Shown: one piece after another, positions 8,046 to 49,846 of the stretch | How the letters are laid out: every line of letters starts with the position of its first letter | Numbering within the stretch: the first letter of the stretch is position 1 | Virus record (IMG/VR): IMGVR_UViG_3300037279_000046 | Reading direction: 5' to 3' (one strand) | DNA: 64,000 bases | Source: a virus | Lineage: Duplodnaviria > Heunggongvirae > Uroviricota > Caudoviricetes | Translations under genes and position numbers: made by a program | The notes under the pieces: generated by a model | The model's database searches: none | What the model saw: the letters and a program-made list of their open reading frames with translations, nothing else | What the model was told of the DNA's origin: nothing

Positions 8046-8572
8046 TCCGTATCAATAATCTGTTGCAATGCCATTGTGTATGCCTTGATGGGCCCTGGTA
8101 CTTTGCGCGTATACGCGTACGAACACCATTCTTTGTACGATCCTTGAATAATCAAGGTTGTATATATGTTAATGGGGGTAAGGACCTGTGATACAAACGC
8201 ATCTGCGCCATCTGCTTGATAGGCTCTGGGATTGATAAGAAGGGCAGCAGTTGTGCGAGAAATATCATTAGAGATCGCTTGTGCTGTAACGACGTCGCTT
8301 CCTCCAAGCTGAGCTGCCGAAGGGATATATGCTTCTGACTCGACATCTGCATTCTCCGTGTTGATGATCTTAAATGCAAACTTAGATAGGTCTAGCTGAA
8401 CAAACAGTGGACACTTCATAACTACAGTGAGTGACCCCAAGTCTTCAAGAACAGTAGGGTATTTACCAAAGAAGAACTCTTGATCTATATCTCTTAGTTT
8501 CTGAGTGGTATTGCAGCTATCGATAAGGGCAACGAAGCCCTTATCGAGAACTGGTATCTTATTGAGTAGCAT
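8036..8572 (-). CDS. hypothetical protein
   Basis: 178-aa ORF, overlapping start/stop with neighbours. Confidence 0.5.
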   Translation of the reverse strand: MLLNKIPVLDKGFVALIDSCNTTQKLRDIDQEFFFGKYPTVLEDLGSLTVVMKCPLFVQLDLSKFAFKIINTENADVESEAYIPSAAQLGGSDVVTAQAISNDISRTTAALLINPRAYQADGADAFVSQVLTPINIYTTLIIQGSYKEWCSYAYTRKVPGPIKAYTMALQQIIDTEWK

Positions 8573-9051
8573 TACAGGTCCTCGTCTTCCTCTTCGACCT
8601 TAGCTTCTTCTTCTTCTTCTTCTTTTTTCTGAGCAAAAGGATTATTCTCGTTGTCGTCTTCAGCAATACCTGCACGACAAGTGTAATCCTTAACGTCGTC
8701 AAACACGCCATCGAGCATCGACTCAGTAATGATGTCTTGGAAGTGAGCTTCGATATAATCAACCGTGTTCTCGTCCAAGATCTTCATAGCAGCAGCCAGA
8801 TCTTTTTGCAAGATAACAACTTTAGCATGATGCTGGTGATCTTTCCACATGATGCCGACAGTCTCACACATCTCTTCAAATGTGAAGACGCCGCGGATCG
8901 TAGAGGGTAAGAACTTAGCTTTAGAGCGATCGCCTGAGCTAACAGCCACGAGGAATGATTCTGATTTAAGGGAAGAGAGATCCATCGTCTCTAATTCACC
9001 AATGAAATCATCTCCGGTCTTAACTGGCAAGTTCATATTTGGATCAGACAT
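8572..9051 (-). CDS. hypothetical protein with poly-Glu C-terminal tail
   Basis: 159 aa; the (GAA)n run at about 8596-8640 encodes KKEEEEEEAKVEEEDEDL. Confidence 0.5.
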   Translation of the reverse strand: MSDPNMNLPVKTGDDFIGELETMDLSSLKSESFLVAVSSGDRSKAKFLPSTIRGVFTFEEMCETVGIMWKDHQHHAKVVILQKDLAAAMKILDENTVDYIEAHFQDIITESMLDGVFDDVKDYTCRAGIAEDDNENNPFAQKKEEEEEEAKVEEEDEDL

Positions 9052-9245
9052 TTATCACCTCTGGATTATATATTATTTCGGATCTTTTAACTCACCGTAT
9101 GTACGTGGACGCACAGTATACAGGGCAGTATAGCGAAAGCTATCTACCGATAAAGTCTTGATCTTGCCCTTAGAGTCTTGAATCTTAATGAAAGGATCTG
9201 TAGCTTGAAGTCGATTAGCTCTATCTCTAGGTGCAGGCTTAATCT

Positions 9246-16396: not shown

Positions 16397-16470
16397 TGGC
16401 AAACCGCCCAGGAATCGAACCCGGTCTAAGAGGTTTGGAATCTCTTGTGCTACCGTTACACCAGCGGAAT
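16397..16470 (-). tRNA. tRNA-Trp (anticodon CCA) candidate
   Basis: Minus-strand read has D-arm GTGT/GCAC, anticodon arm AGAGA-TTCCAAA-CCTCT, T-arm CCGGG-TTCGATT-CCTGG and an encoded CCA. The acceptor stem has two U-U mismatches. Confidence 0.5.
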
Positions 16471-17784: not shown

Positions 17785-19212
17785 TTACACCTTTACAGGA
17801 TAAGCACGAGCACGCACTTGATCCAGAGTTGATTGGTTAGTCAACACACCGTTCAAGAAGACCTGCTCAAGCAGTCCACCTTTTTCGTCAGCAGCAGATA
17901 CTTGATCTGTTGTGACGTAACGACCGTTGATGAAATCAAGACGCATTCTACCCTTGTGCGATTTCTTGCCCGAGTCAGTAATAGGGTCCTTAACGATGTC
18001 GCGCTCTTCTCCATTAACTTCTACGTAAGTGGTCTTAACAGCGAAGCCTTGGTCGTCACGGCTGTGCGATTGCAACAGCAATCCACCAACACCGATAACG
18101 AGATTAGAAGACGCAAATCCCATGCCCTTTAGACGCGCGAGGATGCACTCGTAACGGTCAAAATACATTCCGTCGCCGTAGATCAGGCCTACTTTAGGAT
18201 TCAATTCTTGGAAGCCTAATGCGTTCGTTGTCGTACCGAACTGGCGAGCCAACAGACGCATAGCACCGAGGTTCTCAGCAGAACCAGCAGGAGCAGACGG
18301 GTTTCCACAGATGATGAGCTCTGGGTCACCAGAGTCCGGGCGGAATACCACTTTGCCGTCACGAGCCATGATGCGCTTGTAAAGTACCTGAGTGAAGTTC
18401 TCAAGAACATTCCACAGGTTATAGGTATCAGACACGATAGAGACGATGCCGGTAGGGTAAGTGTTGAGCATGTGCTCAAACGCCTTCAACTCATGTTCCT
18501 GACCGTACGAACACATAACTGAGTGCTCAGATGCAGGGACAGAAGCACCGATAAGGCCAGTCGCAGCGTAGTTCTCCATCAAGAACTTAACAGCCGGAAC
18601 GGTATCTGTTCCACGGAAGTTGATCAAGTGAGCAGCACCAGAGATAGCCGCAGTCTCCTCAGACGAGCAACCACGGTATCCGAAGTCATGGACAGCCCAA
18701 TCGCAGTGGAGACGGTTGCCTACAGTTTCATCCGCGTATGTGTCTACAAGGTTACGCAACTTCATAGAGTACGAACCAACAGTTGTCGGGTTCCATACTT
18801 TAAGAACGAGCGACTCAAAGAAGCCAACTGTCCAAGCGAAGTCAGGATGAGTATTGGTCATCGTGAGAAGAACGTTCTTAACGGGCAGAACAGTTCCTTC
18901 TGGAACAGCTTTGATCTCCAAGGGGATATAACCAAGGTCTGCCAATGCGTGCATCTTTTCAAAGATGTGGCGCGGGGTAGGTCCGAGAATCGATTCACGT
19001 ACCTGCAAGAACTCGTTCACCATTGGGTGAGTGATCTTCTGTGCCAAGTAGTTCTTCAAGATAGGCTGAAGCCCATTGAAGAGCGTGAACGGAATCTTCT
19101 TGTCGGAGCGAGCAACGAGATAGGCGTAGGCCTTAGTGATCCCCTCTGGGAACTGCTCCATGTGCCCCATCTTATATACGTCAGTGCAAAGTAATACGTT
19201 ATCGTTAATCAT
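17785..19212 (-). CDS. nadV: nicotinamide phosphoribosyltransferase (NAMPT/NadV family)
   Basis: 475 aa with DFGYRG, GTDTV and FRPDSGDP, the hallmark NAMPT/NAPRT type II PRT motifs. Confidence 0.85.
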   Translation of the reverse strand: MINDNVLLCTDVYKMGHMEQFPEGITKAYAYLVARSDKKIPFTLFNGLQPILKNYLAQKITHPMVNEFLQVRESILGPTPRHIFEKMHALADLGYIPLEIKAVPEGTVLPVKNVLLTMTNTHPDFAWTVGFFESLVLKVWNPTTVGSYSMKLRNLVDTYADETVGNRLHCDWAVHDFGYRGCSSEETAAISGAAHLINFRGTDTVPAVKFLMENYAATGLIGASVPASEHSVMCSYGQEHELKAFEHMLNTYPTGIVSIVSDTYNLWNVLENFTQVLYKRIMARDGKVVFRPDSGDPELIICGNPSAPAGSAENLGAMRLLARQFGTTTNALGFQELNPKVGLIYGDGMYFDRYECILARLKGMGFASSNLVIGVGGLLLQSHSRDDQGFAVKTTYVEVNGEERDIVKDPITDSGKKSHKGRMRLDFINGRYVTTDQVSAADEKGGLLEQVFLNGVLTNQSTLDQVRARAYPVKV

Positions 19213-19463: not shown

Positions 19464-19936
19464 TTGATTCTTGGATAATCTTTTAAGAGGATTTCAAGGA
19501 TAAGTTCTGAGTCTTTCCAAGGTACAGCGAACAGACCAGAGTTAAACTTATTAGAGTAGACGTCGATCTGTGGGTACGTGTCGCTTGGGTGGGCGAGATA
19601 GATCTTACGTAAGAGATCACGGAGAGCTAGAGTTGTATTGATCTTGATCTCTTCTACGCCGTCTTTCTTAGGTCCGTAGTCATGAGATGTAACGATCCAG
19701 CCGACCCAGTGAGCTTCGGATTCAGGGAACGATGATAGACCAGCAAGACCTACAGCCGTTCCACGCTGCATGTTAGCAGACTCGCAGAACATCTTGTAGT
19801 CGAGAAAGCTCTGAAGATACTTCTCTTTGAAAGGCTTGGCAATGCCAGAACCCCAGACACCCTGCGAGTTGCAGGCATGAATGATTACACTCTCACGAGG
19901 AGCGTCAAAGAGACTCATCTTCTTGTGGGTTACCAT
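19427..19936 (-). CDS. macro domain protein (ADP-ribose-binding or -processing)
   Basis: VIIHACNSQGVWGSGIAKPF matches the macro-domain N-x6-GGGVxxAI-type motif. Confidence 0.7.
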   Translation of the reverse strand: MVTHKKMSLFDAPRESVIIHACNSQGVWGSGIAKPFKEKYLQSFLDYKMFCESANMQRGTAVGLAGLSSFPESEAHWVGWIVTSHDYGPKKDGVEEIKINTTLALRDLLRKIYLAHPSDTYPQIDVYSNKFNSGLFAVPWKDSELILEILLKDYPRINWIVCDPDMVEA

Positions 19937-20754
19937 ACTTTATATCCTTCCGGGTTCCTGAGCAGAGAGTTCGTGGTGTGAATATCACGGATCCCTGCAT
20001 CAAATAATACCTGCTTCCCTTTTGAGAATAGTCCGTGTGAGACTGCTAGGTCGATTGGTCCTGTCTTATATTCTTTAAGTGCTTCAGCTACTTTGATGAA
20101 GGTCATCCCGCCGTCGCAGATGTCGTCGATGATTAGGACACTCTTGCCGTAGAGATCCTGGTGAGATGTATTAACTTTAAGTCCAGTGATCTCGCCCGTC
20201 TGCTGGTTGCGAACCTTCTCGCACCAGATGAACTGCTTACCAGTGGTCTTAGCGTAGCGCTCAGCTGCGCCTTTGTCTGGGTAACATACAAAGTCATAAC
20301 CGATGGTGTTAAACAGAGTCTGATGAAACTCTTTGGGAGTTGTAGACTCCATTGGAAAGACGAGATCAGACTTGGAGTGTGGGTCAAAAGCCTCGATGCG
20401 CGTGATACCTGCGTTATATAGGATCTCTGTGAATGTCTTGAGCGCGAAGCTCAACTTATTGTTTACTTCCTTATCTTGACGAGCGTAAGGAAGATAAGGA
20501 CATACAAGATCAACACTGGTATCGAAAACGTCATAGCATAACTGCGCCACTTGGCATACTTGGATTAACTCAGCTTCATTCTCAAACAGCCATAGTATAT
20601 ATGTGACGCTGTTCGGATCCATCTTTGACTCATCAATCTTCCAGACCTGGGAAGTTCCATCTGGAAAGATGGTTATCGTAAAACTTACTTCTTCGCCGTC
20701 GCTGATGAGCTTAATCATGTGTTCTCTCCCAGTAAGAAATCTAAGTGGCGCCAC
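19930..20754 (-). CDS. prs: ribose-phosphate pyrophosphokinase family (PRPP synthetase or ADPR-pyrophosphokinase-like)
   Basis: PRPP-binding loop VLIIDDICDGGMTF plus LPYARQDK. Confidence 0.85.
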   Translation of the reverse strand: MAPLRFLTGREHMIKLISDGEEVSFTITIFPDGTSQVWKIDESKMDPNSVTYILWLFENEAELIQVCQVAQLCYDVFDTSVDLVCPYLPYARQDKEVNNKLSFALKTFTEILYNAGITRIEAFDPHSKSDLVFPMESTTPKEFHQTLFNTIGYDFVCYPDKGAAERYAKTTGKQFIWCEKVRNQQTGEITGLKVNTSHQDLYGKSVLIIDDICDGGMTFIKVAEALKEYKTGPIDLAVSHGLFSKGKQVLFDAGIRDIHTTNSLLRNPEGYKVW

Positions 20755-21339: not shown

Positions 21340-21386
21340 TTAAATAAGTCTATCTAGAAAAGGCACCACCCGGAGGTGATGCCTTC
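21340..21386 (-). terminator. Rho-independent terminator
   Basis: Minus-strand hairpin AAGGCATCACCTCC/GGGTGGTGCCTT followed by TTTTCTAGA, just 3' of the SPFH gene. Confidence 0.5.
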
Positions 21387-23270: not shown

Positions 23271-23347
23271 TGGTACTCGAGGTGAGACTTGAACTCACAC
23301 TGTGCAGGGTTTAAGTCTGCTGCCTCTGCCAGTTGGGGTAGTCAAGC
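23271..23347 (-). tRNA. tRNA-like gene, anticodon loop CUUAAAC (anticodon UAA if canonical)
   Basis: Acceptor GCTTGAC/CTCGAGT (6 of 7 bp), perfect T-arm GTGAG-TTCAAGT-CTCAC, A73 and encoded CCA. The D-arm is poorly paired and the variable loop is 5 nt. Confidence 0.4.
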
Positions 23348-23438: not shown

Positions 23439-23534
23439 TGGAGGAAGGTATCCGATTCGCACGGATGAAACCCAGTGTTAGTGGGTTTACCAGGGTTCAA
23501 GCCTGGCGCAATAATCTATCTCTGCCAACCTTCC
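23439..23534 (-). tRNA. tRNA-Ser (anticodon UGA), type II
   Basis: Acceptor GGAAGGT/ACCTTCC, 3-bp D-stem, anticodon arm CCAGG-CTTGAAC-CCTGG, variable arm AAACCCA-loop-TGGGTTT, T-arm ATCCG-TGCGAAT-CGGAT and encoded CCA. Confidence 0.6.
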
Positions 23535-24063: not shown

Positions 24064-24202
24064 AAATTCCCATAAAGCGATCTAAAGAGGAGCGACTATA
24101 CGCGGAGTTCTATCTTTGTGTTATCATCTGTCTTGATGTTATGTTGCCATAACATTCTTTGCCCATAACCCGACTGCTAAGCGAGTAGCCTCATCGCAGT
24201 CC

Positions 24203-24210
24203 TATTTATA
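24203..24210 (-). promoter_or_regulatory. T4-type late promoter-like TATAAATA on the minus strand
   Basis: Plus strand TATTTATA, about 140 nt upstream of the HNH start. Confidence 0.3.
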
Positions 24211-24427
24211 GTTGCTACACATACCCTGTCGCCCGTTTCACCCGTTAGATTTACCCAACGACTCGTCTCTGATGCCGTGACTTACCTTACGGTAGGTGGC
24301 CGTTAACCACTATGTTACTCTATGTAGCTCCGACGTTCTTCTCTCCAACATTGCATTGGTCGAGCGATAACCTGTCGCTCCTCTTTAGATCATAAAATTT
24401 TAGTTTCAGAATCCCCTAAGTAAAGTT

Positions 24428-24504: not shown

Positions 24505-24580
24505 TGGCTGACGAGACAGGGTTCGAACCTGTGACCTAACCGTTAACAGCGGTTTGCTCTACCAACTGAGCTACACGTCA
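24505..24580 (-). tRNA. tRNA-Asn (anticodon GUU)
   Basis: Canonical cloverleaf: TA-GCTC-AGTTGGTA-GAGC, anticodon arm AACCG-CTGTTAA-CGGTT, T-arm ACAGG-TTCGAAC-CCTGT, encoded CCA. Confidence 0.8.
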
Positions 24581-31853: not shown

Positions 31854-32615
31854 TTATCGAATCGGTATATTGCGACCCTTTAGTTCTTCTAAACTCCAAA
31901 CTTCTACATTGATAGAAGGATAGTCTTGCTTAAGTAATTCATACTTAACTTTGGCGTCATCTTGCCACCAACCTTTTATCTCAACGTAGTGGTCTCTACT
32001 TCTATCATAGAAGTCAATTATATAAGTTCGACCATCAGAAAGATTAAAAGGAACTTGCCAGTCAAAATCTACCTTATTAGTATTTAAGTAGTTAACTACA
32101 TTGCGCTCCCATTTTCCTTTACATTTAAGAATATCTAGTGTCTTCCAATGTTCAACTTCATAGATATTAGAACAGTTAGTGACCCTTTTTAAGATAAGTT
32201 CTGGGTCATGGTTACGAGCTATGATTTTTTCTAAGTTGAGACAACCACAGGATTTAGCATTACCTGAAGTAAGTGAACCTGCTCTGATTGTGGTTTCTTT
32301 GCCACAGTCACACAAACATCTATAAACAACTCCCCTTTTAGGGAGTTGAATTCGTTCTAATGCTAAAAGCCTATTAAGCTTTTGACCAGTGAGATTTTTA
32401 TTGCGTGTTATACGTATCTTCTCTAAGTTTAGACAACCACAAGATTTGGTATTACCGGTTACTAGTCCATAACTTCTTACAATAAGAGAATTACCACAAT
32501 CGCATTTACATTCATAAGCAGTTTTGTCCAAACCACTTTCTTTTCCTGTAAGACGCTTAATTGTAAGTAAACGCCCAAATCTTTTACCTGTATGATCTTT
32601 AGCTCCATTTTTCAT
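31854..32615 (-). CDS. putative homing-type endonuclease: duplicated zinc-ribbon modules plus C-terminal PD-(D/E)XK-like nuclease motif
   Basis: Two copies of YECKCDCGN...GNxKSCGCLNLEKI; C-terminal IIDFYDRSRDHYVEIKGWW (D...E-x-K). Confidence 0.5.
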   Translation of the reverse strand: MKNGAKDHTGKRFGRLLTIKRLTGKESGLDKTAYECKCDCGNSLIVRSYGLVTGNTKSCGCLNLEKIRITRNKNLTGQKLNRLLALERIQLPKRGVVYRCLCDCGKETTIRAGSLTSGNAKSCGCLNLEKIIARNHDPELILKRVTNCSNIYEVEHWKTLDILKCKGKWERNVVNYLNTNKVDFDWQVPFNLSDGRTYIIDFYDRSRDHYVEIKGWWQDDAKVKYELLKQDYPSINVEVWSLEELKGRNIPIR

Positions 32616-32653: not shown

Positions 32654-34045
32654 TTATTTTCTATGGCTTGTACTACCATCAGGACATTTTACTGTGTCAC
32701 CCAAATTTTTCATTGGGTGGTCTTCTGTTCCGCCCTTAGAGATAATCCATAGTATTTGAGGAGGATTTTGACCTGGTCTAAGCCATGACTCCCAGTCAAC
32801 CTTACTGTAACATCCATCGGTAATAAAAATATTAAGATCACCTTTGCGCTTAAATACATCCTCAAGCGACTTAGTGAGATCTGTACCACCAGACTGAATC
32901 ATAGATTTGTCAATCTTCGTGCCCATCTTGTACTGCTGACGTCCGTAGAGATCAGTGTGGAAGAACGAGAGGTTACACTTTCGTGCGCCAACCTTCAAGA
33001 ACTGATCCACGATCTCAAGGAATTCATTCAACTCCTCAGTGCTGATAGAACCAGACGTATCGAGGTGAAGCTCAAGCTTAGGCAGATCGCCTACTTTAGT
33101 GCCTGGAGCTTTGAAGCCCAGACGCTTGTTCTTGCGCATCCACGTGCCTTTGCGGTTGTGACCGTTGGCGTGTTTCTTCATCGCCATCAAGATCAACGCT
33201 TTGTAGTTCAACTCAGCACGGCGAGTCTTGATGTCCTCAAGAAGATCTTTGACGTGACCAGGGAGATCGTCGTATGACAGACGAGCTTTAACCATTGCAC
33301 GTTTTACGAGCTCTTCAGTAGCATCGAGCATCTCTTTTTCGTCGCCAGCGCCATCCCACATGTGTTCGTCGATCGTCTGTGGAAGGTCACCAGTCTCAGC
33401 TCCGCCACCAGCATTGCCCTGACCTTCGCCATCGCCATCGCCATCTTCTGGATCTTCAAAGCGCTTGATCAATTTCTCGTAGTAATGTTCCATGGTCTGA
33501 ACAGTCTGCCAAGGAGTCTTGGTGCCAGTCTTTTCATCTACGTCATGGTAATGAGCTACATCGATACACTGGCCTGGGCAAAGCTCATTGGGGCAAGGCT
33601 GACCGTCTTTAGTACACTGTGGGCAACCAGCAGGAAGATCCTTAATGAATTGATTGATCGCCATATCAGCTGCGATGTTCATGAGCATGCGCTTACGAGC
33701 GCTGATCTTCATGAACGGAACGCGCAATGGATGCTTATGTGTGATGTGAGAAAGTTCATGAATAAACACGGCTTTACGCTGAGCTGCGTTCAATTTCTTA
33801 CAGAAGAAGTACGGATTTACCAACATATCCCAGCGCTTAGCATCTGTATTGAACATGATACCGGCTGTAGGAAGTTGGTGGGAATAGGAGATTGTCAAGC
33901 ACTGCAGAACCGATCCTAAGAACGGGTGCGTTTTTGAAGTCTCATAGATGGTAGTGGCCAAGCATTGGGATTTCTCCTCAACTGGCACGAACTCTTTGTC
34001 CATCTGCTTTTTAATCTCTTTAGGATCTCTAATTCTTGATGACAT
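32654..34045 (-). CDS. VWA-domain protein with N-terminal HExxH metallopeptidase-like domain (MoxR partner; CobT/DUF2201-VWA-like)
   Basis: FIHELSHITHKH (HExxH) in the N-terminal half; MIDAS motif DTSGSIS in the C-terminal half; acidic Gly/Asp linker. Confidence 0.7.
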   Translation of the reverse strand: MSSRIRDPKEIKKQMDKEFVPVEEKSQCLATTIYETSKTHPFLGSVLQCLTISYSHQLPTAGIMFNTDAKRWDMLVNPYFFCKKLNAAQRKAVFIHELSHITHKHPLRVPFMKISARKRMLMNIAADMAINQFIKDLPAGCPQCTKDGQPCPNELCPGQCIDVAHYHDVDEKTGTKTPWQTVQTMEHYYEKLIKRFEDPEDGDGDGEGQGNAGGGAETGDLPQTIDEHMWDGAGDEKEMLDATEELVKRAMVKARLSYDDLPGHVKDLLEDIKTRRAELNYKALILMAMKKHANGHNRKGTWMRKNKRLGFKAPGTKVGDLPKLELHLDTSGSISTEELNEFLEIVDQFLKVGARKCNLSFFHTDLYGRQQYKMGTKIDKSMIQSGGTDLTKSLEDVFKRKGDLNIFITDGCYSKVDWESWLRPGQNPPQILWIISKGGTEDHPMKNLGDTVKCPDGSTSHRK

Positions 34046-34094
34046 ATAATTGTCTCCCTCGTTACACTACTATTGTATCAGCACGAGTCGCCCC

Positions 34095-34149
34095 CGGTTA
34101 AAGAAAAGGAACCAACCTGGGTGCTAGGGAGGAGTCACACCCAGGTTGG
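34095..34149 (-). terminator. Rho-independent terminator/attenuator between the AAA+ and VWA genes
   Basis: Minus-strand 12-bp hairpin CCAACCTGGGTG...CACCCAGGTTGG followed by TTCCTTTTCTTTAA. Confidence 0.5.
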
Positions 34150-34160
34150 TATAGTCGCTA

Positions 34161-35300
34161 TTACTTAGTCTTTTTATCGACGCCAGTAGCACGACTGATT
34201 TTGATATTGTCTTTAAGGACTTTAACCAGTTCAGGATGGCGGCCAGTGAACTCTTTGAAGAAGTTCGTGATCTGACCTTTCGACTGCTTGTAACCACATT
34301 GTTTGATGAGGTTTACAGCGTGATCGGCAGGGATGATCTTGGCAACTTCTGCCATTATATCCTCGTCGATCTGGTCAGCCTTACAATCTTTCTTCAAACC
34401 ACCGTAGTATTTCTCGATGGACTCAACAGTTGCAGCGATCATATCGCCTTGGTATGTCTGTGGATCCGACATAGAGACGAGACGCTTCATTGCTGCAGAA
34501 CGATCTTTCAACAAATCCTGAGCAGTAACCGGAGCCGAGTCGTAGCAGAACTTGTGGTATTCGTTACCGATGTCTTTACCGAGGATCGAGCAGACAGTCA
34601 AACGGTGAAGAGCGCGGTTCTGATTGACACCAGCAAGCTCAGCAGCGTTAACTTTCGACCAAGTACGTGAAGAGATGTACTTGCCGTCTTTACCGATCTC
34701 TTTCGTGGACTTGTAAGTCCAGATACCAGAAGACACGAACATTTGGACAGAATCATGCCAGTTGGCAGCGTCCATGAAATCGATGAACGCAACGTGGTCG
34801 AATTCAACTTCGAACTCAACGAAACGATCTTTAAGAGCAGCATCCATTGTGTTGACATCGTACTCAGACGAGTCAGGGTTGATACATGAAGCAATCATCC
34901 AACCTGCGGGAACTGTGTAGTTGTGGACTTTGAAATCGGTCAACAGCTGCATTAAACAATTCATGACGCCAGTTGTTCCACGATTCGGTTCTTCAAGAAG
35001 GATCAAGCCTTCACCTTCAGTTGGCCAGAATTCAGGGAGCAAATGCTTCGTACGAGCAAGACCGTTCACGTCAACGCCTTCTGAAGGGAACCCGATCAAA
35101 TCCGGTGCCTCCATGTATGCGATACGAAGATCGATGAATCCGAAGTTCGGATTACGCTTCTGCTCTTTTTTCACCCATGCTTGGGTGATCTCAGATTTAC
35201 CGAGACCAGCTTCGCCGGTGAAGATAGGGTTGATTGTTTTGCCCATAAGGCGTGACTTATATGCCAGATCCAATACTGCGAAAATGTTACTAGGTTTCAT
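34161..35300 (-). CDS. cobS: MoxR-family AAA+ ATPase (CobS-like, AAA_5)
   Basis: Walker A GEAGLGKS, Walker B ILLEEPNR, sensor/arginine region ALKDRF; the size and architecture match phage cobS genes. Confidence 0.8.
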   Translation of the reverse strand: MKPSNIFAVLDLAYKSRLMGKTINPIFTGEAGLGKSEITQAWVKKEQKRNPNFGFIDLRIAYMEAPDLIGFPSEGVDVNGLARTKHLLPEFWPTEGEGLILLEEPNRGTTGVMNCLMQLLTDFKVHNYTVPAGWMIASCINPDSSEYDVNTMDAALKDRFVEFEVEFDHVAFIDFMDAANWHDSVQMFVSSGIWTYKSTKEIGKDGKYISSRTWSKVNAAELAGVNQNRALHRLTVCSILGKDIGNEYHKFCYDSAPVTAQDLLKDRSAAMKRLVSMSDPQTYQGDMIAATVESIEKYYGGLKKDCKADQIDEDIMAEVAKIIPADHAVNLIKQCGYKQSKGQITNFFKEFTGRHPELVKVLKDNIKISRATGVDKKTK

Positions 35301-35348
35301 CTAATCTCCTCCAAAGAGATGTTTCGTTATTTTAATATAATTTCAGAA

Positions 35349-36581: not shown

Positions 36582-37412
36582 ATGGCTGCAATCACTGAGC
36601 TAACAGATAATCTGGCATACGGAGTCGATGTAAAAAATCGCCGAATCTACTTTGGTGTTAACTTAGATACAGCAGAGTCCACTGAAGCCACCGACTTTAC
36701 TTTAGCCTCGGTAGAGATGGCTGTTAGAGCCATGCATAGAATGGCTTCGGATGCACCTAATAAACCTATTGAACTACACATGTCTTCGTATGGTGGAGAC
36801 ACGTACGCGATGCTCCGGTTGCACGACGAGATCTTGGCATGCCCTTGTCAGGTTCGCTTCTTCGGAAGCGGTCCTATCATGTCCTCGGCCACTTTTATAA
36901 TGTCTGTCTGTGACGAGCGTAATCTGCATGCTAACACCGTTGTAATGGTTCATGAACTTACTTCTGGTGGCGGTGGAAAACACACTGACATTAAGATCGA
37001 CGCTGCTGAGAACATGCGACTCATGGACCAACTCTGTGGTATCTATGAAGCCAACTCTCGTATGCCCAAGGAGTTCTGGTTAGACATCTGTCAACGGGAC
37101 GTGTACCTGACGGCCGGCGAAGCAGTGTCATTAGGTCTCGCCGATCGCATCTTAGAACCTAAGAAACGTGGTAACTTACGTAAGGCTCGCCAAGTAGCTA
37201 TGCGTAAAGAAGTAGATGTTAAAGAGATGAAGGACTTAGTGAAGAGCTTGTATGAGCGTACGAGCCGCACTCGTATTCCTAAGCTAGAATTCAACGAGAT
37301 CAAGAAAGAAGTAGCTGATCCACATCTGTTCGTAGATGAAAGCAAAACGCCTGAGAAATCCGTCTTGGATGCTCAGGCGCCCATCGTTCAGCTAGATGTA
37401 AAGAAAGATTAG
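36582..37412 (+). CDS. ClpP-fold serine protease paralog 1 (S14/S49-like)
   Basis: IELHMSSYGGDTYAMLRLHDEI ... GSGPIMSSATFIM ... VVMVHE aligns to ClpP INSPGG / GxAASMG / MIHQP. GGTATAATGT motif about 45 nt upstream. Confidence 0.75.
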   Translation: MAAITELTDNLAYGVDVKNRRIYFGVNLDTAESTEATDFTLASVEMAVRAMHRMASDAPNKPIELHMSSYGGDTYAMLRLHDEILACPCQVRFFGSGPIMSSATFIMSVCDERNLHANTVVMVHELTSGGGGKHTDIKIDAAENMRLMDQLCGIYEANSRMPKEFWLDICQRDVYLTAGEAVSLGLADRILEPKKRGNLRKARQVAMRKEVDVKEMKDLVKSLYERTSRTRIPKLEFNEIKKEVADPHLFVDESKTPEKSVLDAQAPIVQLDVKKD

Positions 37413-38431: not shown

Positions 38432-38682
38432 ATCCTTATTCCATCCAGACCTTCATATACATAGTCGCACTCAACAACCTTTAAAAGGTGTAGCAGATAT
38501 AGAAGGTTTCGAGTCTCTCTAATAATTTCATGGTCATCAAACGTATACATCCAAGTACTTCCCTGCGGAGGGTTATGCTCCGCCCAGAAGTCATTGTTAG
38601 GACCGTAGTGCCAGAAATTTCTAGTCATCGTCTCCGCCGAAGCCAAGACCCAAGCGGCCTTTTGCTTTCTCTTCGAAGTCAC
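38416..38682 (-). CDS. hypothetical protein
   Basis: 88-aa ORF. Confidence 0.4.
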   Translation of the reverse strand: MTSKRKQKAAWVLASAETMTRNFWHYGPNNDFWAEHNPPQGSTWMYTFDDHEIIRETRNLLYLLHLLKVVECDYVYEGLDGIRICGNR

Positions 38683-39628
38683 GCTTGAAGAGCTTAGAGT
38701 GTTCGACGATCTCTTTCACAACCTGCATATAGGTCTTGTCATCGAGCTCTGCACGGACAGCGATCTCTTCCAAGTGGGCAACCGAGAACTCTTCAGTTCC
38801 CTTTGTGCCAAGGCATTCCTTCTCGTCTTCAGTGAGATCACGCTTGCTGATGAATGTCATCAGGCTGATCTTCTCGTCATGACTCGGAGGAGCGAGCTTC
38901 AACATGAGGTCAAAGCGACCTGGGCGATCTGCGAGAGATGCCAACAGGCTCTGTGGATGGTTAGTAGTAGCTACAATGAACGTAGGGAGGCTGAATACAA
39001 CCCCAACGCCATCAAGGAGGTTCAACATTCCCGAGTCAACACCCGAGTTAGAGCGATGACGCTCGCTGTCGCCTCCACCGATGTCCTCGATGACGAGGAT
39101 CATGCGGGTGCAATCCGCAGTGTACTTGCTGTTAGTAGACAGGAGCTTGGCGATATCATCAGCCTCGATCTCTGAGGTCGGCCACATGATAACTACTGTA
39201 CCTGGATCTTCAGCGATGAGGTCAGAACAGAACTTCTCGATAGCAGAGCTCTTACCCATACCTGGGGCAGAGTAGAGCAATACGCCACGCTTCTTAAGGC
39301 GACCAAGCTTCTCGTACACGTGGAGACGCGAGAAGAACTTGTTGGCTTCAGCCATGATCTTAGTGGTGTTCGTAACCGTCTCAAGGAGGTTACGCTTCTT
39401 AAACTCGATTGGACGAAGTCCAAGACCAGCCATCGTCTTAGTGAAGACGAAAGTGCCAGGCTTGATCTCGTACTGGCGCTCGTCTTCAGGCTTCTCAAAC
39501 TTATACTGATAGATGAACTGACCATCCTGGAAGCAGAGATCCGACTCAGGGAGCTCGTTCTCTAGACCAGCGTTCATGTCGTTAAAGGATGTTTTCTTCT
39601 TCAGTACGAACTTGCCTTCGTCAATCAT
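38621..39628 (-). CDS. classic AAA-family ATPase with unassigned N-terminal domain
   Basis: Walker A GVLLYSAPGMGKSS, Walker B ILVIEDIGGG, and the second region of homology ATTNHPQSLLASLADRPGRFD. Confidence 0.8.
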   Translation of the reverse strand: MIDEGKFVLKKKTSFNDMNAGLENELPESDLCFQDGQFIYQYKFEKPEDERQYEIKPGTFVFTKTMAGLGLRPIEFKKRNLLETVTNTTKIMAEANKFFSRLHVYEKLGRLKKRGVLLYSAPGMGKSSAIEKFCSDLIAEDPGTVVIMWPTSEIEADDIAKLLSTNSKYTADCTRMILVIEDIGGGDSERHRSNSGVDSGMLNLLDGVGVVFSLPTFIVATTNHPQSLLASLADRPGRFDLMLKLAPPSHDEKISLMTFISKRDLTEDEKECLGTKGTEEFSVAHLEEIAVRAELDDKTYMQVVKEIVEHSKLFKRDFEEKAKGRLGLGFGGDDD

Positions 39629-47179: not shown

Positions 47180-48004
47180 CTATTGGTTACCGAGTAGTTC
47201 TCGCACCATTTTGCCAGTCTTAATCGCTGTTGCTTGCGATGTTCCAGTCATGAATGCTTGACCTTCAGCAGATGAATACGAGCGTGCGTTTGTACCAAAC
47301 TCCCACACTTTTACAGTCGAACCATAGTTAGAAGTTGGTGCTCTCTTGCCACTCTCTTCCTTATTGCCGACAACAACGATGCGCTTGTCGTAGTAAGCAG
47401 GATAGTAATGCTTGCCAGCCTGATCGATGTCAGACTTCTCATTGCCTGCAGCAAATACCAGAGTGATACCCTTGTTCAAGGCTTCCTCAACAAGAGCTTT
47501 CTCTTCTGAACTTGAGTCAGTACCGCCACCAGAGATGTTGATAAAGTCTACCTTCTCGTCTATAGCAGCCCTAATAGCCTTTTTCATTGATTCGAGGTTA
47601 TTATTGTAAGGTTTAGTGGGGTCATAATACTTCAGAACCACGATGCAGAAATTAGCTTTCATGTTTGCAATTGTCTTAGGATAGACGCCATAACCTAGGA
47701 ATTTGTTCTTGGCATATTGATCGATGAGACCAGCGATATGAGTGCCATGGCCATGATGATCTGTCAGACCAGTATCAGTGAAGTCCTTGCTTCCGGTCTC
47801 GCAGATCATTGGGGAATAGCGTAAAGAATCGGCGATACCTGTGTCGATAACTGCGATCTTAATAAGATGATGTAGCTTGCTAGCCTGAGTAACCACTTCT
47901 TTAGCCGGAGGCGTGGTATTTGCCTCACTGGCCGAACAGCCAGCGATTATAGCTATACTAGGTATTAGAACCTTTAGGCTTTTCATTCGAAACACCTTCC
48001 GCAA
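47180..48004 (-). CDS. subtilisin-like (S8) serine protease, probable lipoprotein
   Basis: Lipobox-like IIAGCSAS; catalytic triad motifs AVIDTGI, HGHGTHIAG and GTSQATA. Confidence 0.8.
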   Translation of the reverse strand: MRKVFRMKSLKVLIPSIAIIAGCSASEANTTPPAKEVVTQASKLHHLIKIAVIDTGIADSLRYSPMICETGSKDFTDTGLTDHHGHGTHIAGLIDQYAKNKFLGYGVYPKTIANMKANFCIVVLKYYDPTKPYNNNLESMKKAIRAAIDEKVDFINISGGGTDSSSEEKALVEEALNKGITLVFAAGNEKSDIDQAGKHYYPAYYDKRIVVVGNKEESGKRAPTSNYGSTVKVWEFGTNARSYSSAEGQAFMTGTSQATAIKTGKMVRELLGNQ

Positions 48005-48782: not shown

Positions 48783-49130
48783 TTACTTGTTATTAACGTC
48801 GAGCGTCTTCTCCAAGTCTTGGTCGAATTGTAAGTCGAATGATACAGCTGCAGTCTCTTCAACAATCTTATTGAACATCTCATCCTTGAAGGCCTGATGA
48901 TCAGTCTCAGAGATAGCTTTGCAGATCTCCAACTTCACTACTTCTTGGTTCTGCCAAGTTGGATCCTTAGCGAATACATCCATGGCAGCCTGTAAGTTAG
49001 CAGGAATTGGGATATTAAAGTGTCTCCAAAAATCAAGAGCGGCATTGCAATCTTCAGGGGAGATTGCGACCTTTTGATCTACTTCGTTTGTTGCTTTTTG
49101 CTCGTTTTGATCCGACATAGGACCTCCCAT
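48783..49130 (-). CDS. hypothetical acidic protein
   Basis: 115-aa ORF. Confidence 0.45.
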   Translation of the reverse strand: MGGPMSDQNEQKATNEVDQKVAISPEDCNAALDFWRHFNIPIPANLQAAMDVFAKDPTWQNQEVVKLEICKAISETDHQAFKDEMFNKIVEETAAVSFDLQFDQDLEKTLDVNNK

Positions 49131-49846
49131 TAACGTTTCTTAGTATCGGTTTTCTTTTTAGGAGACGATTTGCGTTTTCCAGCAGTCTTTTTACCTGTCG
49201 TAATTGACTGCTTCTGACGTGAAGCAAACGGAGCCTTAATGGGTTGTTTAGTAACTTCGTATTGAACTTTACCAAAGACCTTAGGTGTACCGATAGTGTC
49301 TACGATGCCGAACTTAACAGCTTCTTGGCCGACTAAGTAACGATCAGTTCCGTCTTGTTGCTTGATAACTGAGCGGAATTCATCATAGTTCTTGAAGCCG
49401 CAGTTGCGTGCCAACAGACCCATGAAATACTCGTTTAAGCGAGTAGTCTCATTAACGTCTGCCTTCATGTCGTGTACGTTCCCGCCGGTCCCAGATGAGA
49501 CTTCGTGGACCATGACACGTGAGTGTCGGCCCAAGAAACGGACGTCCCCGTGTGACAATAGGACAGCTCCGCAGCTCATTGCCTTACCCATACAGACAGT
49601 AACAATGGGGTTCGGGACTTCATCAATGGTCTCAATCATCTTGGCCAAGGCGTCTACATAGCCACCATAAGAGTCGATGTGAATAGTAATAGGTCGGCTG
49701 GGGTCAGTTGCAGCGATAGCTATAACTGATGCTCTGAACTTTTGCGCGTGTTCCTCGTCGAATTTGGTAACCCAGATTTCTGGGAGCTTAAGAGTATCGT
49801 CTTCCATTAGAACCACCTTTCCAGTAAAAGAATTGTACTTGGCCAT
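49130..49846 (-). CDS. ClpP-fold serine protease paralog 3 with basic C-terminal tail
   Basis: ITIHIDSYGGYVDALAKMIETI ... GKAMSCGAVLL ... RVMVHEV; C-terminal KKTAGKRKSSPKKKTDTKKR. Confidence 0.75.
   Translation of the reverse strand: MAKYNSFTGKVVLMEDDTLKLPEIWVTKFDEEHAQKFRASVIAIAATDPSRPITIHIDSYGGYVDALAKMIETIDEVPNPIVTVCMGKAMSCGAVLLSHGDVRFLGRHSRVMVHEVSSGTGGNVHDMKADVNETTRLNEYFMGLLARNCGFKNYDEFRSVIKQQDGTDRYLVGQEAVKFGIVDTIGTPKVFGKVQYEVTKQPIKAPFASRQKQSITTGKKTAGKRKSSPKKKTDTKKR

Follow-up and report, generated by a model that had tools for sequence, protein, structure and literature searches.

The 14 core genes shared by N4-like phages include gp24 and gp25, which belong to the middle transcripts (PMC4193335; PMC7650795) and encode an AAA+ ATPase and a vWFA protein. 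We describe here a gene pair of this kind in a 64,000-nucleotide (nt) stretch of DNA from a tailed phage (Caudoviricetes; IMG/VR record IMGVR_UViG_3300037279_000046), which is referred to below as the window. A gene for an N4 gp24-like AAA+ ATPase of the MoxR/AAA_5 clade (379 amino acids [aa]; 34161..35300, minus strand) is followed, after a gap of 115 nt, by a gene on the same strand for an N4 gp25-like protein of the DUF2201 family (463 aa; 32654..34045), identified with Pfam and tblastn, in which a putative zincin domain is fused to a VWA domain. All features of the pair described below are on the minus strand. Both open reading frames (ORFs) lie where an initial annotation of this DNA had placed them, and its description of a MoxR-clade AAA+ ATPase adjoining a VWA partner with an HExxH domain was borne out by domains, motifs and synteny. 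To judge from these comparisons, which established the homology, domain architecture, motif invariance and synteny of the pair along with the conservation of a hairpin in the intergenic gap, the locus is an unremarkable instance of the N4 gp24/gp25 type of gene pair, which many phages are known to carry.

In the Schitoviridae, including Pseudomonas phage LUZ7, the gp24-like ATPase is homologous to that of the window (BLASTP E value, 4e-11), the gp25-like partner has the same DUF2201_N plus DUF2201 architecture, and the order, strand and early/middle replication-module context of the two genes are as in the window. Identity between the N4-like and window proteins is only 22 to 25%, however, and a Cys-rich insert, an acidic linker and the conserved hairpin are features of the window and its clade. 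In LUZ7, the gp24-like gene is followed by a 153-aa ORF, the gp25-like gene and then helicase and DNA polymerase genes. The same module, with the same Pfam domains, is found in Bacillus phage AR9/PBS1 as g028 ("AAA family ATPase") and g029 ("zincin-like protease fused to vWA domain"). The AR9 ATPase matched that of the window at a BLASTP E value of 3e-19, and an early promoter is annotated upstream of the AR9 pair. AR9 differs from the window in being a jumbo phage of a Gram-positive host and in having the two genes 24 nt apart with no promoter annotated between them. Moorella phage MTATph1 likewise carries a homologous pair followed by a helicase gene.

A MoxR ATPase with a vWA cochaperone that bears an N-terminal metallopeptidase domain has also been described for the "group 2.2" jumbo phages (Iyer et al. 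2021, Viruses 13:63; PMC7824862). From its description, this pair (ASV44729.1/ASV44728.2) has the architecture seen in the window; its authors proposed a role in virion assembly, whereas the context in the window points to the early/replication phase. Among cellular systems, RavA/ViaA, NorQ/NorD, CbbQ/CbbO and MoxR proper with BatA-like proteins all place an AAA+ ATPase with a helix-2 insert beside a VWA protein with a metal ion-dependent adhesion site (MIDAS), and these systems gave the best structural matches. They gave no family-level sequence match to the window pair, however, and we found no zincin domain in the cellular partners.

The partner protein combines two conserved sites

The partner protein scored above the curated Pfam cutoffs for two families, PF13203 (DUF2201_N, "putative metallopeptidase domain") at its N terminus (E value, 1e-11; 45.4 bits versus a cutoff of 23.2) and PF09967 (DUF2201, "VWA-like domain") at its C terminus (2.7e-8; 34.4 bits versus 26.4). 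Because both scores exceed the curated cutoffs, the zincin-VWA fusion is the defining architecture of a known family and no oddity. The zincin module had initially been called unusual, which is refuted by the occurrence of the same PF13203-PF09967 architecture in, among others, the N4 gp25-like proteins and AR9 g029.

Based on the DUF2201_N match and the secondary structure predicted by AlphaFold2 (AF2), the putative metallopeptidase domain spans residues ~20 to 197 (33455..33988). It contains the sequence HELSHITHKH (residues 96 to 105; 33731..33760), which has the form HExxHxxxxH. We assessed invariance in 44 diverse partner representatives (26 to 47% identity), in all of which residues H96, E97, H100, H105, D127, G315, D329, S331, S333, G387, T388, T409, D410 and G411 were conserved. 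D127, which lies in the sequence NIAADMAINQ (codon at 33665..33667), is a candidate further zinc ligand. The VWA domain occupies residues ~320 to 455 (32681..33088). A MIDAS is defined as DxSxS...T...D, with the Asp residues ending strands 1 and 4 (PMC7159879); in the partner protein, D329, S331 and S333 of the sequence DTSGS (residues 329 to 333; 33047..33061) provide the first part and T388 and D410 complete it. Since the HExxHxxxxH motif with its Asp and the complete MIDAS are invariant in the 44 representatives, the HExxH site and the MIDAS site are both evidently under selection.

DUF2201_N was matched by all 44 representatives, and their secondary Pfam matches were mainly to zincin families (PhageMetallopep, 12; M48, 8; SprT-like, 5; M43, 2), with the remaining ones being found in a single member each. 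A profile of the N-terminal domain gave weak matches to M48 HtpX (E value, 0.011), BepA and the minigluzincin MJ1213, all centered on the active-site helix, and BepA shares the HExxHxxxxH spacing of the partner protein. In the AlphaFold model of the partner (predicted local distance difference test score [pLDDT], 77), the domain has a three-stranded sheet, a helix at residues 87 to 102 bearing HExxH and a helix at residues 116 to 131 bearing D127, a predicted secondary structure that is compatible with a zincin fold. The VWA domain was found to have the expected Rossmann-like fold, its structural matches including NorD in the NorQ-NorD complex.

The top Foldseek match to the partner was the VWA domain of CLCA1, and the CLCA proteins have an analogous domain order (zincin, Cys-rich region, VWA) in one polypeptide. 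CLCA proteins are eukaryotic, secreted and self-cleaving, and we know of none with an AAA+ partner. They are classed as an HExxH protease family (PMC3650047). The likeness to the partner lies in the domain order and the VWA fold.

Two features of the partner protein are specific to its lineage. One is a Cys-rich insert within the peptidase domain (C141, C144, C151 and C156; 33566..33625), the cysteines of which are invariant in 80 close relatives; the insert is missing in many of the more distant relatives, among them the protein of the Moorella phage. The other is the Gly/Asp/Glu-rich linker at residues 198 to 227 (33365..33454), present as first noted, which is predicted to be disordered (pLDDT, <50) and differs in length by up to ~45 residues among relatives.

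The partner family is large, comprising 3,373 clusters (50% identity) at an E value of ≤1e-3 and 137 at 1e-30, and database searches placed members in 159 phage isolates and in thousands of clusters from metagenomes. By tblastn, the partner matched LUZ7 gp25-like (4e-8) and AR9 g029 (3e-8) over 85 to 86% of the query, with PBS1 also matched; a run limited to E values of ≤1e-5 gave no match and a run with a limit of 1 gave E values of 1e-8 to 4e-8, a discrepancy left unexplained, and we used the latter result, which was backed by local BLAST and Pfam. A DNA search found no match to the locus in phage isolates.

DUF2201 zincin-VWA proteins are called "HNH endonuclease" in RefSeq and in PHROG-based (Pharokka-style) annotations, which is the description of PHROG 1314; examples are found in NC_031039, NC_043027 and NC_013691, in OR602862 (CDS0180) and in Vibrio phages (OZ195695 etc.). 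Pfam detected no HNH domain in these proteins and gave only DUF2201_N and DUF2201, in some cases with a weak VWA or M48 match. Going by these domain assignments, the label is a propagated misannotation that hides the DUF2201 family.

The ATPase belongs to the MoxR clade

The ATPase has a Walker A motif, GEAGLGKS (residues 29 to 36; 35193..35216), of which G29, G32, G34, K35 and S36 are invariant in the ATPase alignment, and a Walker B motif, LILLEE (residues 99 to 104; 34989..35006), followed by PNR. E104 is invariant, and E103, N106 and R107 are nearly so. Also invariant among the relatives are N141, R159 (in a DRF motif) and R212 (in SPRTW), which from their positions we infer to be sensor 1, the arginine finger and sensor 2, respectively.

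The window ATPase matched no Pfam or NCBIfam family, including AAA_5 and AAA_3, even at E values of ≤1, and Pfam detected no LARA or other accessory domain. AAA_5 was matched by 19 of the 22 aligned relatives at E values of ≤1 (best, 1.7e-5), and the homologues AR9 g028 and Moorella CDS0181 pass the AAA_5 cutoff. Single-sequence searches of the PDB gave nothing useful, and a profile search gave only weak matches to the D2 domains of ClpB and ClpC, so that the clade assignment rests on structure comparison, in which the closest structures were members of the MoxR clade, including BchI, CbbQ and NorQ. The hallmarks of this clade are a beta-hairpin insert in helix 2 and a pre-sensor-1 hairpin (PMC7159879). 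In the AF2 model, strands at residues 73 to 76 and 82 to 85 follow helix 2 and precede strand 3, and residues 124 to 129 form short strands; pLDDT is low in all of these segments. We accept the ATPase as a MoxR-clade AAA+ protein of no named subfamily. The likeness to CobS/CobT, RavA/ViaA and NorQ/NorD that the initial annotation had drawn holds at the level of the AAA+ clade and the VWA fold but does not extend to any Pfam or NCBIfam link (E values of ≤0.1 to 1).

Cronobacter phage GAP31 (rV5-like; L001, 3899..5806) encodes a "MoxR ATPase" that is distantly related to the window ATPase (~30% identity). The next gene encodes a 229-aa protein that has no Pfam match and is not DUF2201. A zincin-VWA partner thus does not adjoin every phage ATPase of the MoxR type.

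Gene order and the intergenic hairpin are conserved

We examined 29 distinct related viral or metagenome-assembled genome (MAG) contigs that hold both genes, and in all 29 loci the two genes shared a strand, with the ATPase gene upstream and the partner gene downstream, as expected of the MoxR-VWA pairing proposed at first. These contigs are typically 150 to 178 kb long. A scan of genome collections returned only three MAG contigs, one of which was the same 146,658-bp contig as an IMG/VR entry, and the three are probably misbinned phage contigs that tell nothing of cellular relatives or of the host.

Both genes have good ribosome-binding sites, with the Shine-Dalgarno sequences GGAGGAG for the ATPase gene (35306..35312) and GAGGGAG for the partner gene (34054..34060). 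Between the genes, sequence inspection and folding identified a hairpin of 14 perfect bp with a 12-nt loop, GACUCCUCCCUA (34111..34150; ΔG, −25.3 kcal/mol), with a U-rich tract, UCCUUUUCUUU, directly 3' of it (34100..34110). The strong hairpin and U-tract reported between the genes at 34095-34149 are thus real and were covered by that interval. This is the longest perfect hairpin in the window, and stems of ≥13 bp occurred in 0.25% of shuffled 120-nt windows; the whole 120-nt intergenic region folds no better than usual (z = −1.1). A consensus terminator scan missed the hairpin because the scan accepts loops of 3 to 8 nt only, which the 12-nt loop exceeds, as do the loops of 9 to 17 nt in relatives. 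A hairpin with a pyrimidine-rich loop occupies the same place, directly after the ATPase stop codon, in 20 of the 29 related loci, and the window brings the count to 21. The stems in relatives are 9 to 16 bp long, the longest having 16 pairs plus one mismatch, and a U-run follows most copies. We predict that the hairpin is probably a terminator, attenuator or 3'-end stabilizer of the ATPase transcript.

Downstream of the hairpin, a consensus scan identified a sigma-70-like site, TGATACAAT (34072..34101), of the form TTAACC-N18-TACAAT (9/12 matches) with a TG extension. On this match to the consensus only, the partner gene would seem to be served by a sigma-70-like promoter of its own. The same arrangement of hairpin and promoter is found in one of the related loci (L003). 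The idea of an internal terminator within an attenuated operon was a reasonable one, but it is incomplete, since a sigma-70-like promoter follows and one to three ORFs intervene in many relatives. Because of this promoter-like site and the inserted ORFs, the two genes look like neighboring transcription units and not like one attenuated operon.

A further motif, CYGAWAYDATW, occurs on the minus strand at 34071..34081, 35336..35346 and 9071..9081, in each case 20 to 40 nt 5' of a start codon; the first copy belongs to the partner gene, the second to the ATPase gene and the third to the ORF at 8572..9051. Relatives also have similar motifs ahead of their partner genes. The copy upstream of the ATPase gene reads CTGAAATTATA. 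The motif may be a phage promoter element, although its enrichment was not significant (4 found versus 2.0 expected).

The gap between the two genes ranges from ~64 to ~2,560 nt among relatives; a gap of 33 nt in L005 was discounted because the start had been wrongly called inside the hairpin. In many relatives one to three unrelated ORFs lie between the ATPase and partner genes (L004:4163-6000, L010, L014, L015, L017, L018, L019, L011 and L041). At least five unrelated ORF families have been inserted in this way, none of them in the window; one is a 396-aa P-loop plus GIY-YIG-like protein, and another, of ~200 aa, is common to L010, L014 and L015. From this comparison of gene orders, the gap between the genes is a hot spot for the insertion of ORFs among relatives. 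In T4-like phages, PeSL terminator-promoter cassettes mark sites of ORF insertion and deletion (PMC2839356; PMC4122927). As in the window, a PeSL consists of a stop codon, a stem-loop, a sigma-70-like promoter, a Shine-Dalgarno sequence and a start codon (Arbiol et al. 2010; Comeau et al. 2014), and ORFs are gained and lost there between relatives. PeSLs are present in many similar copies per genome, whereas the hairpin has no second copy in the 64-kb window. The DNA ligase of the window matched many lineages at ~34% identity, a result that does not place the phage among the T4-like phages.

The pair may act as a remodeling and processing machine

We consider it somewhat probable (roughly 0.55) that the pair is an ATP-driven remodeling and processing machine of the early/middle phase, a copy of the module represented by N4 gp24/gp25 and AR9 g028/g029. 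The MIDAS of the VWA domain would grip an acidic residue or an extended peptide, belonging either to a target protein or to the ATPase ring; the ring would spend ATP to remodel or position the target; and the zincin domain would cut it. The most likely setting would be early/middle-phase action on a host or phage nonvirion protein. In this clade, the ATPase gene ends in the hairpin and U-tract, with probable termination or attenuation and protection of the mRNA 3' end, and the gap between the genes gains and loses accessory ORFs, as at PeSL cassettes. Cooperation of the ATPase with its partner, proteolysis, timing and termination are thus what we infer for the pair. The proposed MIDAS and ATPase mechanism is carried over from established knowledge of MoxR-VWA pairs (PMC3893208; PMC7159879). 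The early/middle nonvirion role is suggested because the pair sits among replication, nucleotide-metabolism and host takeover genes, both here (DNA ligase, Endo VII, metallophosphatase, ribonucleotide reductase [RNR], thymidylate synthases and nicotinamide phosphoribosyltransferase) and in distant phages.

Several points weigh against this reading. In the literature we found no experimental evidence on the activity, interaction or target of any member of the DUF2201 family, and gene neighborhood is weak evidence for timing or role. VWA matches filled both fold search lists, and support for a zincin fold of the N-terminal domain consists of Pfam, the invariant motifs, the weak M48 profile matches (E values, 0.011 to 0.1) and the predicted secondary structure. 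At 12 nt, the loop exceeds the size usual for intrinsic terminators, and a C breaks the U-tract. Finally, the consensus scan found 15 sigma-70-like sites in the region where 13.1 were expected, and the promoter is not evident in all relatives.

A serious rival, which we nevertheless regard as somewhat unlikely, is that the pair is a chaperone-protease for virion assembly, folding or assembling structural proteins and trimming them during maturation. Iyer et al. (2021) put forward this role for jumbo phage pairs of the same architecture (PMC7824862; cited in PMC9964418), and there is a precedent in Acidianus two-tailed virus (ATV), in which the MoxR/VWA pair p618/p892 drives tail development (PMC7824862); MoxR-VWA pairs in general mature dedicated protein complexes (PMC3893208). 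The ATV pair has no peptidase domain, however (PMC7824862), N4 gp24 and gp25 are middle and not late transcripts (PMC4193335), and the neighbors of the pair in the window, LUZ7, AR9 and the Moorella phage are replication/early genes and not structural genes. All of these points leave room for an assembly factor that is made early.

The hairpin itself admits another explanation, which we regard as unlikely: that it is mainly a regulatory RNA, the CCUCC loop of which would lower translation, either by pairing on readthrough transcripts with the GGAG-type ribosome-binding site of whichever gene follows or by acting in trans after 3'-end formation. The loop is more conserved than the stem, the stems being only 36% identical between loci while the loops (above the usual terminator size) are 80% pyrimidine, with CCUCC in 14 of 21 and CCCUU or CCUUU in the others. 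In the window, the loop sequence CUCCCU is complementary to AGGGAG in the Shine-Dalgarno sequence of the partner gene, and RNAduplex gave −11.2 kcal/mol for this pairing versus −8.5 kcal/mol for a generic anti-Shine-Dalgarno sequence. The window yielded no further hairpin of this type; a CCUCC hairpin at 21359..21386 was considered and rejected, as it folds into a 12-bp stem with a UCCG tetraloop. But a CCUCC loop is complementary to any Shine-Dalgarno sequence, so that covariation is no test of loop pairing, and in relatives with inserted ORFs the hairpin remains beside the ATPase gene while the next gene differs. The U-tracts after most copies are what a terminator predicts, and no Rfam family matched the hairpin region. 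The pairing of 99% across loci is partly by construction, as the best hairpin was chosen for each locus, the controls being shuffles and constant position; pairs were counted by script, as MAFFT anchored on the loop and left the stems out of register. With its covarying stems and conserved pyrimidine loop, the hairpin is a small, testable RNA puzzle, and its loop is the sole new detail of the window, in which the pair is no more testable than in N4, LUZ7 or AR9.

Two bolder proposals, which together we hold to be quite improbable, are that the CCUCC hairpin from the 3' end of the ATPase mRNA is a new anti-Shine-Dalgarno element that would set, in cis or in trans, the translation of the partner or other genes and that the pair is an early-phase, ATP-gated and MIDAS-targeted protease that would cut a specific host protein, such as a defense or replication factor. 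If the second were true, it would for the first time assign a function to a module that belongs to the core of N4-like phages and is also widespread elsewhere. We found no literature report of a tested function for the module, and a conserved, probably catalytic ATPase-protease machine made early represents a real gap in phage biology. The window adds to the known examples a well-sampled environmental clade with invariant active-site residues, which does not in itself reveal the target. PADLOC defense system profiles matched neither protein.

Very unlikely, finally, is a role of the pair as a metal- or cofactor-insertion machine (CobS/CobT-, NorQ/NorD- or CoxD/E-like), with HExxH as a metal-binding and not a proteolytic site, for a phage metalloenzyme such as the class II RNR suggested at first: NorD of NorQ-NorD is among the VWA fold matches and BchI, CbbQ and NorQ are among those of the ATPase, and genes for an RNR and a NifU-like protein are present in the window, but the catalytic Glu of HExxH is invariant in 44/44 representatives, as a hydrolytic site predicts, the secondary profile matches go to peptidase families, there is no Pfam or NCBIfam match to the CobS, CobT, CbbQ or NorD families, and the genes flanking the pair in LUZ7, AR9 and the Moorella phage encode helicase, polymerase or gyrase, the stretches of these replication modules that were read containing no RNR gene.

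Other features of the window

Within 15 kb of the pair, the window encodes two ClpP-like proteases, a "protease" (PHROG 3677) and an ATPase of the classical AAA family (PF00004); these genes, which make the region rich in proteolysis and remodeling functions, lie at 36582..37412 (plus strand) and at 49130..49846, 47180..48004 and 38621..39628 (minus strand). Directly 3' of the partner gene, a 253-aa ORF with repeated CxC...CGC motifs (31854..32615, minus strand) matched PHROG 374, "HNH endonuclease" (1e-31), with no Pfam match, and may encode a homing endonuclease.

Genes for nicotinamide phosphoribosyltransferase and ribose-phosphate pyrophosphokinase lie close together on the minus strand (17785..19212 and 19930..20754), which suggests a phage NAD salvage module. 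A module of this kind may have a link to counterdefense.

A match to bacterial class A RNase P RNA on the minus strand (24083..24383) scored 149.5 bits, versus a gathering score of 100, with an E value of 3.7e-46. The full model (positions 1 to 367) is matched in only 301 nt, i.e., in a reduced form. The RNA lies within what appears to be a phage genome and adjoins a cluster of tRNA genes (Asn, Ser, Leu and Trp; 24505..24580, 23439..23534, 23271..23347 and 16397..16470, minus strand). A literature search for phage-encoded RNase P RNA returned nothing relevant, and this RNA is perhaps the window's most unusual feature.

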